Shown: positions 18,718 to 25,167 of the stretch, piece by piece
How positions within the stretch are numbered: the stretch's first letter is position 1
Layout of the letters: every line of letters starts with the position of its first letter
From: a virus
Taxonomy: Duplodnaviria > Caudoviricetes
DNA length: 64,000 nucleotides
IMG/VR virus record: IMGVR_UViG_3300012827_000001
Span: 1 to 64,000 of that record
Reading direction: 5' to 3' (one strand)
Notes under the pieces: generated by a model
Databases searched by the model: none
Seen by the model: only the letters and a program-made list of their open reading frames with translations
What the model was told of the DNA's origin: nothing
Made by a program: the position numbers and the translations under genes

Positions 18718-18969
18718 TCAGGAGTGGGTGCTGCCGTAGGTCTCCGCCCTGAGGTGGGCCCAGACCAGGAGGTCCGGCAAGTTCTTGCCGGGGGTTGCGT
18801 GGCGCCCATGCTTGGCGGCCGCGTCGAAGCGGCGCCTGGCCTCGGCGAGCGGGAAGTCGATGTCGTCGTCGTCGTAGGCGGCGACGTAGCCGTGGGCGTT
18901 GACGCCCGCGTCGCCCGGGGCGCGGAACCAGCGCGGGTCGTCGTACGCGGCGTGCTTCGGGACACGCAT
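18718..18969 (-). CDS. Hypothetical protein
   Basis: CAGGAG RBS before ATG18969. Confidence 0.6.
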   Translation of the reverse strand: MRVPKHAAYDDPRWFRAPGDAGVNAHGYVAAYDDDDIDFPLAEARRRFDAAAKHGRHATPGKNLPDLLVWAHLRAETYGSTHS

Positions 18970-18994
18970 GGCAGCTCCTGAAGAACTCGAAGGG

Positions 18995-19024
18995 ACGCGA
19001 TTCCTGCTAGCGCAGGAATCGCGT
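18995..19024. promoter_or_regulatory. Best copy of the dispersed palindrome (ACGCGATTCCTGC TAGC GCAGGAATCGCGT)
   Basis: 13-bp perfect arms with a 4-nt centre, about 25 bp upstream of ATG18969. Confidence 0.85.
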
Positions 19025-19131
19025 GAGGGAAGGCGGGGTTGTCCGACCCGACCCCCTGCCTGAAGGTGGCAGGGACGCACCAGGCCAAACGGCTGTTTAG
19101 AGTCGCCTGGTCGACTGTCTGAAGGGTGTGG

Positions 19132-19329
19132 TTACGCGCCGATCCACCGGTCGGACGGCTCCCACGGATCGGTGGCGTCCGACAGGTCGTCGAAGTCGCA
19201 CGTGAGGGCGATCCAGAAGAAGCCGGGGCCGTCGCGGTAGGAGCATTTGGGGCAGTAGGCGTTGACGTAATGCATGAGGTAGCGGTGGCCGCGCGCAACT
19301 GCGTCGTCGTCGATCACAGCGCGATCCAC
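19132..19329 (-). CDS. Small Cys-containing protein
   Basis: YCPKC...C motif; start assigned to GTG19329. Confidence 0.55.
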   Translation of the reverse strand: MDRAVIDDDAVARGHRYLMHYVNAYCPKCSYRDGPGFFWIALTCDFDDLSDATDPWEPSDRWIGA

Positions 19330-19448
19330 CCGTTGCCCTGAAGAACGCCCGCGGCCCACGGGTCGTCGGTCCAGCCAACGGCCTTACCGGTGGCGACACT
19401 GAAGATGGTCACCGGCTCGCGGAGCTGTGGCTGCGTCGGGGTGCGCAT
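19314..19448 (-). CDS. 44-aa hypothetical protein
   Basis: TGATG coupling to the upstream ORF. Confidence 0.45.
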   Translation of the reverse strand: MRTPTQPQLREPVTIFSVATGKAVGWTDDPWAAGVLQGNGWIAL

Positions 19449-19621
19449 CACACACGCTCCACCGTGTAGCCAGCCTTGCGCCACTGGCTGACGACCTCCG
19501 GGTCGTCCGTGGTCGCGAGGTAGCGGCCGGACGGGGTGAGGACGTTGTGCGGGACGATCTTCGGCGTGTAGGCGTCCGGCGCGGGCGCGGGGCCCTCCGG
19601 CAGCCATGCGTTGTCGAACAT
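19448..19621 (-). CDS. Hypothetical protein, probable first gene of the leftward operon
   Basis: CAGGAGG RBS before ATG19621. Confidence 0.65.
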   Translation of the reverse strand: MFDNAWLPEGPAPAPDAYTPKIVPHNVLTPSGRYLATTDDPEVVSQWRKAGYTVERV

Positions 19622-19867
19622 GGCATTCCTCCTGAAGGTCGGAGCTGTGGCAGCTCTGAAGGTGGGTCGTTCCTTGAAGGTGGACATGGCCGGCCCCCTG
19701 GGGGTTGGCGTGTGGCGTGGCGAGCTGGCAACCGTGGCTGCCGGCTCAGCTCGTGCCCGTGACCGAGTAGGTGGTGGGCCGACCGCGTCCGTGCCGCGTC
19801 GGCGCGTATGCGCTAGCGGCTACCCGCGCGAGTGCGCGGGAGTGTGTGTGAGGGACCGCGTCCCTCT

Positions 19868-20198
19868 CTCTCACCTACTAAAGCGTGAGCGTCCGAACCT
19901 TTCCGGTCCGGGGTGAGAGGGTTCGACGCGCTACCGCGCCCGTCCCTCTCATCTACTAAAGCGAATCCGCGCGGACCTTTCCGGCCCGGGGTGAGCGGGG
20001 ACCGTGCGCGCGACCTACTGTCACGCGGCTTACCGTCCCGCCTCTCACCTACTAAAGCGGGCTCGCGCGAACCTTTCCGGTCCGGCGCGGGTGAGTCTGC
20101 GGGGACGTGTGAGCGTCGTCCGTGCGTCGCTCTCTCTCGTCCCTGCCTCACACACTAAAGCGGGCCCGTGCCGACCATTCCGGTGCCGCACGTGACCG
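19868..20198. repeat. Array of four bipartite 52-56 bp units
   Basis: Units at 19868-19919, 19946-19997, 20042-20097, 20145-20198: CTCTCACCTACTAAAGCG-N9-GAACCTTTCCGGTCCGG..GGTGAG. Confidence 0.9.
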
Positions 20199-20223
20199 CG
20201 TGCACGCCTGCCTGCGGGCACAG

Positions 20224-20255
20224 AAAAGGCCCCACCTACCGGAGTAGGTGGGGCC
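20224..20255 (-). terminator. Intrinsic terminator after the 455-aa gene
   Basis: GGCCCCACCTAC/GTAGGTGGGGCC stem followed by TTTT on the minus strand. Confidence 0.85.
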
Positions 20256-20269
20256 CGATCCGTGGGCCG

Positions 20270-21637
20270 CTAGGCGCCGATAGCGGCGTCTCGTGCGACG
20301 TCGGCTGCGAGTGCGGCCTCGCGTGCCGCGCGGTACGCGATCACCGCAGCGCGCTCGTCGGGCGTCGCGCGTCCGGCGGGCGCCCGCCCGGCCGTGCGGG
20401 CTGCGCGTCCGGCCGCGCGGGCGTCGGCCAGGCGACCGTAGGCGTCGGCCTCGCGACGCCACGCGGCGAGCGCGTCACGGATGGCGTCGCGGACGACGTA
20501 CTCACGCTGCCCGCCGTCCGGACGGCCCACCGGCACGTCCGTAGGTCCGCCGATGAATCCGTCGTGCAACGGCCCGTGGTCGCGCGTGACCGTGGGCATC
20601 GGCGCGGCACTCTCACCCGCCAGCCGCTCACGGTCACGGTAGACGCCGACACCACCACCGGCGCGGACACCGGCACCGGGCGCGCCCGACATCGCGCCCG
20701 ACCGCCCCTTGGCGCCCGTGTTGGCACGCGGCCCGCGCGGCGCCGACACCGTGCCCGCGACCCCCTTGACGTCGGTCCGCATGATGCCCCGCATGTCCGC
20801 GCCCGACAATGCGCCCGTGACCGCGCGGATCATCTCGACCCGGTCGGCGTCGCCCTGCCACCCGTAGCGACGGATCGTCGCGCCACCGTCAATGAGTACC
20901 GATGCCACACGCCGGTATGCCGTACGCCCGGACGGGTCCGAGACGATCCTCCCGGCGTCGTGAGCGCGGGACACGATGTCGTCCCGGCACGCCGCCCACA
21001 TGTGCAGCGCGTCACGCACCCGCTGGCCGCGCGTGTCCCGATCCGTCGTGTCCGCGTGCGGCAGCAGGGTCCCCGTGGCAGGCATGCCGCCGCGCCCGAT
21101 CGGGCAGTACGTCGCCCACACGGCCAGCCGGTACGCGGCCACGTCCCGCCGCGCGAGCGCCGCCCACGCCAGCGCGTCCACGTCCGCGTAGTGCACGACG
21201 ACATCCGTCGTGCCCGTGCCCACGATGCCGCCCGCGCTATCCGGCGCCGACGGCAGATCACCCGTCATCTGCGCACGCTCCACACCACGGGACCGCAGCG
21301 TCCTTCCCTCCCACATGACGGCCTGCCGTGCCGCCGACGTGTCCGCCGACATGTCCGCACCGCGCGCCAGCAGATTCACGACGATGTCCTGCGACACATC
21401 GTCCGCCGTGAGCCCCGGCACGCCCGACGCCACCCGGTACGCCGTACGCCGCACGTACGTGTACAGGTCCGCCGACAGTCCCGCCGGTGCCACCGTGCAC
21501 GTACCGTCGTCCGACCCCACCACTCGCGCCGACGCGTGCGCCCGGGCCATCGCCCGCCGCATGCCCGTCGTCCCGTTGTCCGCCTGCCGCGTCGCCTCGC
21601 GTGCCGCCGCGTCGGCGGTCACCACTGTTCCACGCAT
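20270..21637 (-). CDS. Very GC-rich 455-aa protein with a sigma-70 region-2-like segment
   Basis: GGAAGGA RBS; own terminator; LYTYVRRTAYRVA...ADDVSQDIVVNLL resembles ECF sigma region 2; remainder unrecognised. Confidence 0.55.
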   Translation of the reverse strand: MRGTVVTADAAAREATRQADNGTTGMRRAMARAHASARVVGSDDGTCTVAPAGLSADLYTYVRRTAYRVASGVPGLTADDVSQDIVVNLLARGADMSADTSAARQAVMWEGRTLRSRGVERAQMTGDLPSAPDSAGGIVGTGTTDVVVHYADVDALAWAALARRDVAAYRLAVWATYCPIGRGGMPATGTLLPHADTTDRDTRGQRVRDALHMWAACRDDIVSRAHDAGRIVSDPSGRTAYRRVASVLIDGGATIRRYGWQGDADRVEMIRAVTGALSGADMRGIMRTDVKGVAGTVSAPRGPRANTGAKGRSGAMSGAPGAGVRAGGGVGVYRDRERLAGESAAPMPTVTRDHGPLHDGFIGGPTDVPVGRPDGGQREYVVRDAIRDALAAWRREADAYGRLADARAAGRAARTAGRAPAGRATPDERAAVIAYRAAREAALAADVARDAAIGA

Positions 21638-21747
21638 GGTCCCGTTCCTTCCCTATGTCCGGATCACCTGTTGTGACCGAATCACGTGCACTAGTGGTCC
21701 GCGACGACCGTGAGCACCTACGTGCCGCTAGTGCTGACCGTCAGCCG

Positions 21748-21870
21748 TCACATTCCGACCCATCGGCCGACGACCCCTAGTGCCCACACGATGCCGAGCA
21801 CCGTGACCGGCAGTGCTGCGACCGCGACGACGACGACGACCTGGCCGATCCTGCGAGCAATGGCGAACAT
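21748..21870 (-). CDS. 40-aa single-pass membrane peptide (not in ORF track)
   Basis: MFAIARRIGQVVVVVAVAALPVTVLGIVWALGVVGRWVGM; GAGAGGA RBS. Confidence 0.65.
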   Translation of the reverse strand: MFAIARRIGQVVVVVAVAALPVTVLGIVWALGVVGRWVGM

Positions 21871-22315
21871 GGTTGGTTCCTCTCATCCGCGCACGCGTTG
21901 TGCGTGCACATACAGTGTCGGCCACATATAGCGACACCTAGAGCCCTAATCCGAGTTCGTTATACAACCGTGACCCAACATCACCCGTGACCGGTCCGCC
22001 CGAGCCGTCCCGAGCTGCGAGCTCTCACCCGCTACGACCGATACGTCGAGCCGGCCCCACCGTCATGTCCGAAACGCCCGACCAGCTCACATCCCCCCCG
22101 GTTAGTCGTGCAATGTCCGAAACAAGTGAAATTCCTAACGGCAGGTCTTCTCTCGCGATAGGACCGCCACGGATTTTCGATAACGGGTTCTTGCGCCCGC
22201 TCTGAGGGTGGCTTGTGGTCGTCGATGCCGGAGGCATCGTTGCTGGTGGGGTCTGATCGCCCGTGTTCTGGCGACGCTTGATCAGACTCGGGTCAGACTC
22301 TGGTGCCGCTTCCGA

Positions 22316-22337
22316 GATTCCTGCGCTAGCAGTAATC
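22316..22337. promoter_or_regulatory. Dispersed palindrome copy
   Basis: GATTCCTGC GCTA GCAGTAATC, upstream of lsr2. Confidence 0.8.
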
Positions 22338-22594
22338 GTGGAGGGTTGCCCGTTCAGCCAGGGTTGACGGATGGTGGGTGGCGTTGGGTGCACGAGCGCC
22401 TCATGGCAGGCCAAGGAGTCAACGCCTCATCTCCGGCGAAGGCACATGCTAGGTCGGGCCCCTGGCCTGGCCGGAGGGTTCCTTTCCCCTCCTCAGGGAG
22501 TGACCTGCTCCGCGGCCAACGAGAGCCTCTCCGGGCTGTACGCCGGGGGGGCTTTCGTTTACCCTGGGGCCCTTCCCTCACGAAAGGAGATGTC

Positions 22595-22948
22595 ATGGCG
22601 ACGAGGGTCATCAAGCTGCTGACCGACGACCTCACTGGAGAGGAGGGTGCGACGACGTACCAGTTCTCTCTCGGGACCGCGAGCTACGAGATCGATCTGG
22701 CCGATGGTGGTGTAGAGCTGAGGAAGGCGCTGGAGCCGTTCATCGCTGCCGGCCGCCGGTCGTCGGCGGCGGCACGGTTCCGCCGGTCGGAGCCGGCGCC
22801 GGATCGCACGGAGTACCTCGCGAAGCTGCGGGCCTGGGCGAAGGATGCCGGGATCCACGTCAGTGCTCGGGGCCGTGTGCCGCGGGAGGTCGAGGAGAAG
22901 TACGAGGCTCACCTTCGCGAGCCGGTGAAGGCCGGCAAGCGCAAGTAG
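22595..22948 (+). CDS. lsr2: Lsr2-family nucleoid-associated protein
   Basis: LTDDLTG...FSLGTASYEIDL...LRKALEPFIAAGR; C-terminal LRAWAKDAGIHVSARGRVP (RGR AT-hook). Confidence 0.93.
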   Translation: MATRVIKLLTDDLTGEEGATTYQFSLGTASYEIDLADGGVELRKALEPFIAAGRRSSAAARFRRSEPAPDRTEYLAKLRAWAKDAGIHVSARGRVPREVEEKYEAHLREPVKAGKRK

Positions 22949-23259
22949 TTCTTCTCGCCCCACCGGGACGAATCCACTCACCCCGGGGCGCATGGTGTCA
23001 GCAATGAGACCGCGCGCCCTGGGGTGTTTTCGTGTGCTCTGGCCTGGTCCCACGGTTCCCCCCCGTGTCAAGCCGCGTCGTTGCGGCGGGGTGAACGTAC
23101 GTCCTCCGATCGGCACAGCGCTTCACCCTCAAGTTCTGGTGGCAACGTGCCGAGTAGGCGCTGGACGTTTGCCCAGGACGTGTGGCCTGGCTGTGACCAG
23201 GAGGTCCACCCGTAGGAGTGAGCGCGGGTTGTGCAACGCGCGACACTCCATGCGTCTCG

Positions 23260-23289
23260 CCGCGATTCCTGCTAGCGCACGAATCGCGG
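23260..23289. promoter_or_regulatory. Dispersed palindrome copy
   Basis: CCGCGATTCCTGC TAGC GCACGAATCGCGG, about 50 bp before ATG23342. Confidence 0.8.
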
Positions 23290-23341
23290 AGTCGCGACTT
23301 CATGGCCTTCCACGCGGTGGACTTGGTGGATGGGACGCCGC

Positions 23342-23626
23342 ATGAAGGAGCCACGGTTCGAGCCGACGTGGGGTGAGCGACTGTTCAGTCGGTTGCCGCG
23401 GAGCTTTGGCTGGATCCATTTCGCCACCCGTGAGGACTTTGAGCGCGGCGATGGGTCGACGTTCGTGCGCAAGGCGTACGTGGTGCCGGTCTTCGAGAAC
23501 GAGTCGTCGCTCATCATGTTCCCTGGCATGTACATCCCCGGAACGAAGACGTTCGTGGAGTACATGAATCTGGATGCCCTGACGGAGATCATCGAAGAGG
23601 AGTGGGATGTCGACGGAGAGGATTGA
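23342..23626 (+). CDS. Hypothetical protein
   Basis: ORF overlapping the sigma gene start. Confidence 0.6.
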   Translation: MKEPRFEPTWGERLFSRLPRSFGWIHFATREDFERGDGSTFVRKAYVVPVFENESSLIMFPGMYIPGTKTFVEYMNLDALTEIIEEEWDVDGED

Positions 23627-24368
23627 CCCGGATCGACCACTGCTCCCAGCCAAGTGGGCGGCGGCGAAGGCGGGCGACGACAAGGCTGTGGCCTGGCTCG
23701 TGGAGAGGTACCACTGGCTGGCGTTGAAGGTGGCGCGGGCGAAGAACGTGCCACCCCACTTCGACCGCGAGGACGTGGTGTCGTGGGCGAACTGGGGGCT
23801 GTTCGACGCCGTCCGGAAGTTCAAGCCGGAGGCGAACACGGACGGCAAGCTCCACGAGCATTTCATCGGCTTCGGGACGTTGCGGATCCACGGCGCGATC
23901 CTGGATGGGATGAAGGCTCCGGGTCAGTCCTGGGCAACGCGCGAGGTGTGGCGCCAGATGCGTGAGATGAAGACGACGACCGAGCTGCTGGAGCAGTCGC
24001 TGGGTCGGCCGGTGACTCGTCGGGACGTCGCGGAACAGCTTGGAGTGCCGGAGTCGTCCCTCCCGGTGTTCCAGCAGCAGATCCCGCTGACAGCGGTGGG
24101 TACGCCGAACGACGACGACATCATGGAGTACGACTTCTTCCATGACCCGGCGACCGCGGACGCTTCTGCGGAGGTCGCCGTGATGGTCCACCGGGTCGCA
24201 GCAGCCCTGGCGGCGCTGCCCGAGGAGAGTCAGGAGTTCCTGGCTGAGACGTATCTGGGTTCGGGTGTGGTGGACGCGCCTGCGGCTGTGCGCAAGCGCC
24301 GGCGCCAGGAATCACTCCTTGCGCTGCGTGACGTGCTGCAGCGGACTCAGGTCGATCCCACGAGGTAA
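23607..24368 (+). CDS. Sigma-70 family factor, FliA/WhiG-like, with shortened region 4
   Basis: LVERYHWLALKVAR, DREDVVSWANWGLFDAVRKF, LRIHGAILDGMK, region 3 TRRDVAEQLGV. Confidence 0.88.
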   Translation: MSTERIDPDRPLLPAKWAAAKAGDDKAVAWLVERYHWLALKVARAKNVPPHFDREDVVSWANWGLFDAVRKFKPEANTDGKLHEHFIGFGTLRIHGAILDGMKAPGQSWATREVWRQMREMKTTTELLEQSLGRPVTRRDVAEQLGVPESSLPVFQQQIPLTAVGTPNDDDIMEYDFFHDPATADASAEVAVMVHRVAAALAALPEESQEFLAETYLGSGVVDAPAAVRKRRRQESLLALRDVLQRTQVDPTR

Positions 24369-25113: not shown

Positions 25114-25167
25114 CGCGTCGAGTGCGATGAGCAGGATCGGCGAGGGGGACGCGATGGAGCTCACGGC

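Follow-up and report, generated by a model that had tools for sequence, protein, structure and literature searches.

What is the function of four near-identical units that are stacked ahead of an 18-kb replication/recombination operon in the genome of an uncultured soil phage? The window, i.e., the whole stretch of DNA that was analyzed, comprises positions 1 to 64,000 of an IMG/VR record of 83,979 bp. The two ends of the record overlap by 48 bp, apparently as a result of assembly and not because of a physical terminal repeat. The phage DNA has a GC content of 65%. An Lsr2-like protein, an endolysin, tail proteins, a terminase and a portal are encoded in the window, which indicates a tailed phage with a high-GC actinobacterium as host. 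Its leftward genes occupy ~1.3 to 19.7 kb; among their products are a clamp-loader-like ATPase, a ligase, and further proteins that handle DNA. The rightward genes begin at 22.6 kb with Lsr2 and a sigma factor, followed by lysis and structural genes. The array precedes the leftward operon, and all genes flanking it are located on the minus strand. Judged from its sequence and that of its relatives, the array most likely represents a four-promoter stack that would drive the 18-kb DNA-replication operon.

Genome setting and boundaries of the array

By sequence comparison, none of the cultured phages appears to be close to the phage of the window. A blastn search with positions 19600-20300 and a tblastn search with P0001, the protein encoded upstream of the array, gave no match among 50,697 phage records and among the phage records, respectively, and the sole match of the terminase is a mangrove-soil phage at 33% identity. 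Genome contigs contain neither a relative of the phage sigma factor nor the bipartite motif of the array, so that prophages give no clue to the host. Viral contigs queried with P0001 and its relative P0042 yielded nothing, and their sole motif match (L005) was dismissed as a chance match, as it is low in GC and lies inside a coding sequence. Two full-length relatives, G001 and G002, were reached via the sigma factor, which is 63% and 53% identical to that of the window, respectively. IMG/VR classes G002 as a provirus. P0001 and the sigma factor are each recorded on contigs of up to 493,725 bp, and one locus (L006) lies on a contig of 181,960 bp; the phage may exist in an integrated form, unless these long contigs are concatemers or chimeras.

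In the direction of transcription, the terminator is followed by units 4, 3, 2, and 1, the leader, and the first operon gene. These features and the genes of the two candidate factors discussed below are:

23607-24368, plus strand: gene of the phage FliA/WhiG-like sigma factor (NCBIfam TIGR02479, 2.7e-17)
20270..21637, minus strand: gene of P0001, 455 aa, upstream of the array, with high GC3 in frame; candidate sigma-like factor
20227..20256, minus strand: intrinsic terminator of the P0001 transcript, a 13-bp stem with 9 GC pairs, then TTTTCTGTG
20143..20198, minus strand: unit 4, the most diverged, with GGAAT at the -35-like position and the box GCTTTAGTG
20040..20095, minus strand: unit 3, CCGGAAAGG, then GCTTTAGTAGGTGAGAG
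19944..19997, minus strand: unit 2, CCGGAAAGG, then GCTTTAGTAGATGAGAG
19866..19921, minus strand: unit 1, promoter-proximal, CCGGAAAGG, then GCTTTAGTAGGTGAGAG
19850-19866: 7-bp hairpin after unit 1
19622..19865, minus strand: structured leader of ~240 nt from unit 1 to the first gene, part of a 611-nt folded stretch
19448..19621, minus strand: first gene of the leftward operon, 57 aa, with an AGGAGG ribosome-binding site

The initial annotation of this DNA had placed a strong terminator beside the array, and the 13-bp stem with its T-run is indeed found there on the minus strand, with counterparts in G001, G002, and a further relative, L007. Likewise, the start of the first operon gene at ATG 19621, with AGGAGG ahead, agrees with the gene call. 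A terminator scan revealed none inside the units, where only three T follow 1-8 nt after the unit hairpins, and the leader matches no Rfam family.

Only 28 nt separate the terminator from unit 4. Sites of the housekeeping sigma-70/SigA type (TTGACA-N16-18-TANNNT) do not occur between 19000 and 24000, and the hexamer TANNNT is seen in unit 4 only (TAGTGT). No other promoter candidate was found between the terminator and the operon, including the gap between the terminator and unit 4, and the array units are the sole conserved, partly A+T-rich elements in this interval. Since the terminator ends the upstream transcript and a sigma-70-type site is lacking in 19000-24000, the operon would need a promoter at the array.

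The surroundings hold further non-coding elements. Ahead of a 40-aa ORF that precedes P0001, positions 21870-21980 (minus strand) carry an A+T-richer TATAACGAAC stretch and then a shortened box, CTCTAGGTG; in G001 and G002, equivalent ATAACGA repeats and a box stand before a 360-aa gene, and CCGATA(A/G) follows 17-18 nt after the box in both. A 22-bp palindrome, GATTCCTGC..GCAGGAATC, is present at 22317-22338 and 23265-23286 (plus strand), ahead of the Lsr2 gene and the sigma operon; the two copies have their 4-nt centre in opposite orientations, and the palindrome also precedes the sigma operon in the relative L015. An element of ~65 nt with TTTTCGATAACGGGT lies in the divergent region of three phages (22135-22200, plus strand, in the window; 1-50 in L012; ~8880-8945 in L015), where it is conserved nearly base for base, although protein identity among these phages is only 50-65%. 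The element might serve as a promoter or as part of an origin, or might encode a small RNA. Two repeats were noted in G001: two perfect-tandem 34-nt units, each a hairpin plus TATAGCGCTCATTAT, lie between coding regions of the leftward operon (L014 10946-11013) and have no counterpart in the window, and ~26 copies of an 18-nt period repeat (L014 6667-7332) presumably represent a repetitive coding segment.

Conserved blocks in the units and in relatives

The four near-identical units, of 55 bases each, were all found where they had been described, between 19866 and 20198. A 16-nt left block starts at 19870, 19948, 20044, and 20147 with 0, 1, 0, and 2 mismatches, respectively, i.e., with 4 matches compared to 0.22 expected, a number that is reached in 0/100 shuffles. 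The bipartite pattern (ACTAAAGCG, 11 free bases, ACCWTTCCGG) gives exactly 4 matches versus 0.01 expected, and no further copy is present outside the array in the whole 83,979-bp genome. The finer details of the initial annotation were also recovered: the four 9-nt cores, the GTCCC ahead of each unit, the linkers between units (with start-to-start spacings of 78, 96, and 103 nt), and the inverted ends CTCACC/GGTGAG, which are degenerate in unit 4. On the minus strand, a GAAAGG-like block (GGAATGG in unit 4) lies 17 nt before TAGTAG in the four units, as had been claimed.

Read in this orientation, a unit consists of CTCACC, a palindrome centred on GGAAA (GGAAT in unit 4), 15 nt, GCTTTAGTA, GGTGAGAG, and GGGAC. 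The length of the palindrome depends on the unit (6-13 bp), and in unit 4 an imperfect hairpin of 13 bp spans the -35-like block. GGAA(A/T)-N15-GCTTTAG is kept exactly in all four units, with a spacer of varying sequence. The 9-nt variable core corresponds to the spacer that separates the two conserved blocks, and some of its bases belong to the 3' arm of the palindrome. The inverted ends pair best across linkers, GGTGAGAG with the CTCACC that precedes the next unit, and GCTTTAGTA is the sole A+T-rich patch of each unit. Two blocks at a fixed distance around a variable spacer are what a two-block promoter typically looks like.

Homologous boxes in relatives show where such elements are placed. 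G001 contains seven copies of the box CTAGAAGGTGA(A/G)GGCA, all in the orientation of the leftward operon: one after the equivalent terminator, four before the starts of small genes (47-95 nt), and two before the gene upstream of the terminator. One of the four copies before small genes lies 47 nt before the ATG of the ortholog of the first operon gene (BLASTP E = 1e-9), and another ends 2 nt before an ATG. In G002, two CTAGAAGGTGA-like copies occupy the two equivalent places. Altogether, the boxes of G001 and G002 are single copies in the transcribed orientation, 20-95 nt before start codons (22-95 nt in G001). Based on these positions, the box appears to be an orientation-specific, gene-proximal, intergenic signal. 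The four-copy pile-up occurs only in the phage of the window, whereas the relatives carry single copies. G001 and G002 have no GGAA at the equivalent position and keep a GGTGCSCG block 39 nt upstream instead; the inverted ends within units are absent from both.

The sole P0001 relative examined as DNA, L007 (41% identity, 1.6-kb Logan contigs), shows the order gene, terminator, ~100 nt, palindrome, GGAAC, 15 nt, GCTTTAGTA, and contig end. The contig stops inside its first box, in keeping with an assembly that breaks at a repeat. Its 5' end is probably an artefact, with positions 1-24 being what we take to be Illumina adapter-like sequence. GGAA at the -35-like position is seen only in the two phages with a P0001-type gene.

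Probable promoter role and alternative functions of the units

Taken together, the array is probably a set of four tandem phage-specific promoters. The initial annotation had preferred tandem minus-strand promoters for a non-housekeeping sigma factor; this reading gives the best fit to the gene-proximal boxes of the relatives, while the assignment of the boxes was refined to a -35-like CCGGAAAGG and a -10-like GCTTTAGTA. All four promoters would fire leftward into the replication/recombination operon, with the array being used by host core RNA polymerase in conjunction with a phage-directed, non-housekeeping specificity factor. This factor would contact the -35-like CCGGAAAGG and then, past the fixed spacer, the -10-like GCTTTAGTA, and transcription would begin within GGTGAGAG or immediately behind it. 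Because GGTGAGAG pairs with the following linker, a transcript starting near GGTGAG would open with a stem-loop. Four copies might raise the output, as do the stacked early promoters of other phages, and the palindrome over the -35-like block could be an operator, or form a hairpin in read-through RNA. We infer all four elements of this scheme, i.e., the promoter nature of the boxes, the start sites, the reading factor, and the role of the palindrome.

Several features do not fit easily. The -10-like block agrees with none of TANNNT, the sigma-28 element GCCGATAA (2/8), and the usual CGT/GTC core of ECF promoters. Conservation extends beyond the expected start site into GGTGAGAG, which is atypical of sigma-dependent promoters, and so is the G001 copy that ends 2 nt before an ATG.

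The initial annotation had offered two alternatives to promoters. According to the first, the units would be replication iterons that form an origin, and four direct repeats beside replication genes would be in line with this. However, their spacing is irregular, no A+T-rich unwinding region is adjacent (GC 0.61-0.78 per codon phase), and the boxes of G001 are dispersed over 4.3 kb, one per gene and in one orientation. According to the second, the units would form a processed guide or small-RNA array with the 9-nt core as variable payload. The cores do vary between constant flanks, but 9 nt are too short for a guide, the core is partly paired within the palindromic hairpin, and neither CRISPR nor any other Rfam match was obtained on the array, even at E <= 10. 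Both alternatives were therefore abandoned as extremely improbable: single oriented boxes before genes in the relatives argue for promoters rather than for iterons or a guide array.

Another possibility is that the units are not promoters but operators, i.e., asymmetric sites for a repressor or activator, with the palindrome GGACC-N5-GGTYC as a dimer site controlling entry into the operon. The apical sequence of the palindrome is kept in units 1-3, a palindrome with a shifted centre lies at the same place in L007, and the phage uses another dispersed palindromic operator. On the other hand, the block with the strongest conservation, GCTTTAGTAGGTGAG, lacks symmetry and keeps a strict orientation in all relatives. 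Unit 4 has only a degenerate form of the palindrome, the G001 units have none, and a pure operator function would leave the operon without a promoter. We consider this highly improbable.

The units might also act at the level of RNA, as modules of a long leader in which the single-stranded CGCUUUAGUA stands between two hairpins and serves for RNase processing, stabilization, or as a site for antitermination or RNA-binding proteins; the promoter would then be located elsewhere, or the terminator be read through. Indeed, the 611-nt stretch of the minus strand folds better than shuffled sequences (z = -4.26), and in the predicted fold the A+U-rich boxes are nearly the sole unpaired segments, between stable hairpins. 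In the -35 hairpins, all four non-Watson-Crick pairs are G-U on the minus strand, where they would be A-C on the plus strand, and conservation reaches into GGTGAGAG with its pairing to the next linker. RNA processing in this operon is indicated by a match to the Pistol ribozyme (RF02679) at 19047-19116 on the minus strand, where the ORF 18718-19080 begins, ~500 nt beyond the array. The match is full-length and scores 61.9 bits against a gathering threshold of 34.5 (E = 3.5e-10); an Rfam search of the relatives L014 and L015 gave no match, hence no Pistol ribozyme there. Against a purely RNA-based function, the short gap between the terminator and unit 4 holds no promoter candidate. Among the four units, not a single in-register pair is compensatory (0 with changes in both partners), and shuffled columns pair at least as well. 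Moreover, the hairpin energies are only mildly unusual for a GC-rich genome (genome fractions 0.014-0.28), no Rfam family matches the array, and G001 and G002 do without the inverted ends. We therefore regard this explanation as unlikely. Nevertheless, since transcripts from upstream units necessarily run through the downstream ones, the hairpins may matter in RNA also if the units are promoters, e.g., by affecting stability or processing of the transcript or by insulating one promoter from the next. The hairpin with a GNRNA-like loop, followed by CGCUUUA, would also allow a reading as boxB-boxA antitermination signals of the rrn type, but four tandem copies and the gene-proximal single copies of the relatives fit promoters better.

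As putative promoters, the units resemble the early promoters A1, A2, and A3 of phage T7, which are stacked, feed the same genes and are read by the host housekeeping sigma factor. In both cases, several strong tandem promoters ~80-130 nt apart would head one long early transcription unit. In contrast to the T7 promoters, which match the host housekeeping consensus, the array units match no housekeeping consensus, and each of them has a palindrome spanning its -35-like block as well as a start region that is conserved.

Candidate factors reading the boxes

Phage-specific promoters that are read by phage-encoded proteins are known as well: the sigma-like proteins gp55 of T4 and gp28 of SPO1 act on host core polymerase and read successive classes of phage-specific promoters. 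The predicted use of the array by a phage-encoded sigma-like protein would be similar, but the proteins are unrelated in sequence, and the class of the array is present only as a four-copy tandem. Two proteins of the phage are candidates for this role, the FliA/WhiG-like sigma factor and P0001.

The FliA/WhiG-like sigma factor belongs to a family of 17 metagenomic phage sigma factors, in which region 2 is near-invariant. The sigma-28 consensus is TAAAGTTT-n11-GCCGATAA (PMC2859248). The units share its 8+11+8 layout, with exactly 11 nt between the positions of GAAAGGTT and GCTTTAGT in the four units and in L007. In addition, the -35 part, GAAAGGTT in units 1 and 3, agrees with TAAAGTTT at 6/8 positions (5/8 in unit 2, 4/8 in unit 4); for comparison, E. 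coli fliC has TAAAGGTT. The box and a FliA/WhiG-like sigma factor also co-occur in all three phages for which the full region was examined. However, the -10 part, GCTTTAGT, has only its first two bases in common with GCCGATAA and lacks the CGA core. The sigma factor itself and its closest homolog, P0008, lack ~7 residues of the helix-turn-helix in region 4, i.e., in the part that reads the -35 element, whereas the other 15 members keep them.

A different box suits this sigma factor better. Exact copies of GTCGAGTG, which retains the CGA core, stand before late genes on the plus strand at 25117, 41266, 45169, 48875, and 50490, often right after a terminator. It is also found in relatives at L012 2006, L017 4296, and L019 737 (minus strand), where it directly follows the sigma gene (G001, L017, and L019). 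No canonical sigma-28 site (TAAA-N15-GCCGATAA) is present in any intergenic region of the genome. GTCGAGTG is likely a -10-only late promoter for the FliA/WhiG-like sigma factor. Because the invariant GTCGAGTG fits the near-invariant region 2 better than the array box, which differs between relatives, the sigma factor more likely reads GTCGAGTG than the array; that this factor, and not P0001, reads the array is quite unlikely. The variation of the array box next to a near-invariant region 2 rather suggests a faster-evolving reader, such as the product of the upstream gene.

The most likely factor would accordingly be sought in P0001, a putative divergent sigma-like protein that is encoded just upstream of the array and insulated by its own terminator. 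P0001 has only 4 relatives among 1.84 billion representatives, P0042, P0043, and P0044 among them, and the family alignment is highly variable. Its residues 50-235 are modelled at a pLDDT of 77. In an exhaustive structural comparison, the top four matches are actinobacterial sigma factors, to which residues 50-135 align over ~72-77 residues of domain 2 (9m98_F, Z 7.4; ShbA, 7.3; SigH, 6.7; SigL, 6.7), and sigma factors make up ~15 of the 50 best matches. Residues 146-227 reach a Z of only 4.9 against region 4 of sigma-E. Foldseek returned nothing below E = 0.3 for both P0001 models, and a VIA structure search with the whole protein was dominated by the C-terminal coiled coil. P0001 has no match in Pfam or NCBIfam, and five family members gave no Pfam match up to E = 10 with a Pfam set that may lack PF25684. 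The closest language-model neighbours of the P0001 segment are clusters of phage Gp53 (PF25684) and Sigma70_r2, at 0.93-0.95 (0.95 for Gp53). With middling Z scores (<8) and no Foldseek match, the models are suggestive of a fold like sigma domain 2, but are no proof.

As a reader of the array, P0001 is only weakly favoured, because G001 and G002 share the core of the box, yet carry an unrelated 360-aa protein at the same locus. Neither BLASTP nor hhalign related this protein to P0001, and it is only faintly similar to sigma region 4.

The -35-like block is reminiscent of promoters of ECF sigma factors, which have the -35 consensus GGAACTT with the hallmark GGAA(A/C) (PMC1540707). The units share a G-rich 5' side with GGAA(A/C) at -35, a fixed spacer, and a short second block, and they adjoin the gene of a protein whose N-terminal domain is modelled like domain 2 of ECF sigma factors. 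In L007, GGAACTC agrees with the consensus at 6/7 positions. The phage of the window has GGAAAGG three times and GGAATGG a single time; these retain the AA of the AAC motif without its C and without the T tail, and the -10-like block is GCTTTAGTA instead of a CGT/GTC core. P0001 also differs from ECF sigma factors in having ~220 additional C-terminal residues and no Pfam sigma domain.

A second comparison is offered by phage D29. As reported in a recent preprint, gp53 of the mycobacteriophage D29 displaces SigA from mycobacterial RNA polymerase and occupies its sigma-binding surface (bioRxiv 10.64898/2026.10.05.756390); the abstract describes no cognate promoter for gp53. P0001 can be compared with the D29 gp53-gp52 module, in which gp53 is a small helical actinophage protein, as the nearest language-model clusters of P0001 carry PF25684. 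P0001 differs in its lack of an HMM match to Pfam and in its length of 455 aa with a coiled-coil tail. A tentative proposal, which may well prove wrong, is that P0001 and its four relatives constitute a new ECF-like or gp53-like family of phage sigma factors with a long coiled-coil tail, which take over host core polymerase. The cognate promoter would be GGAA(A/C)-N15-GCTTTAGTA plus the conserved start region, and would be present here as a four-copy array with a hairpin-embedded -35 element.

As a biological phenomenon, the stacking of phage promoters is ordinary, since both it and the sigma cascades of phages are familiar. If confirmed, the array would represent a compact and apparently orthogonal promoter class for high-GC actinobacteria, with four natural strength variants. 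It would help to understand how actinophages take over host transcription, and would be usable as a genetic part, with a candidate cognate sigma-like protein encoded next to it. It would also open a way, from the side of the promoter, to study the sigma-displacing proteins recently described in mycobacteriophages. If P0001 is indeed the cognate factor, the two would form a self-contained and orthogonal pair of sigma factor and promoter that stems from an uncultured actinophage.
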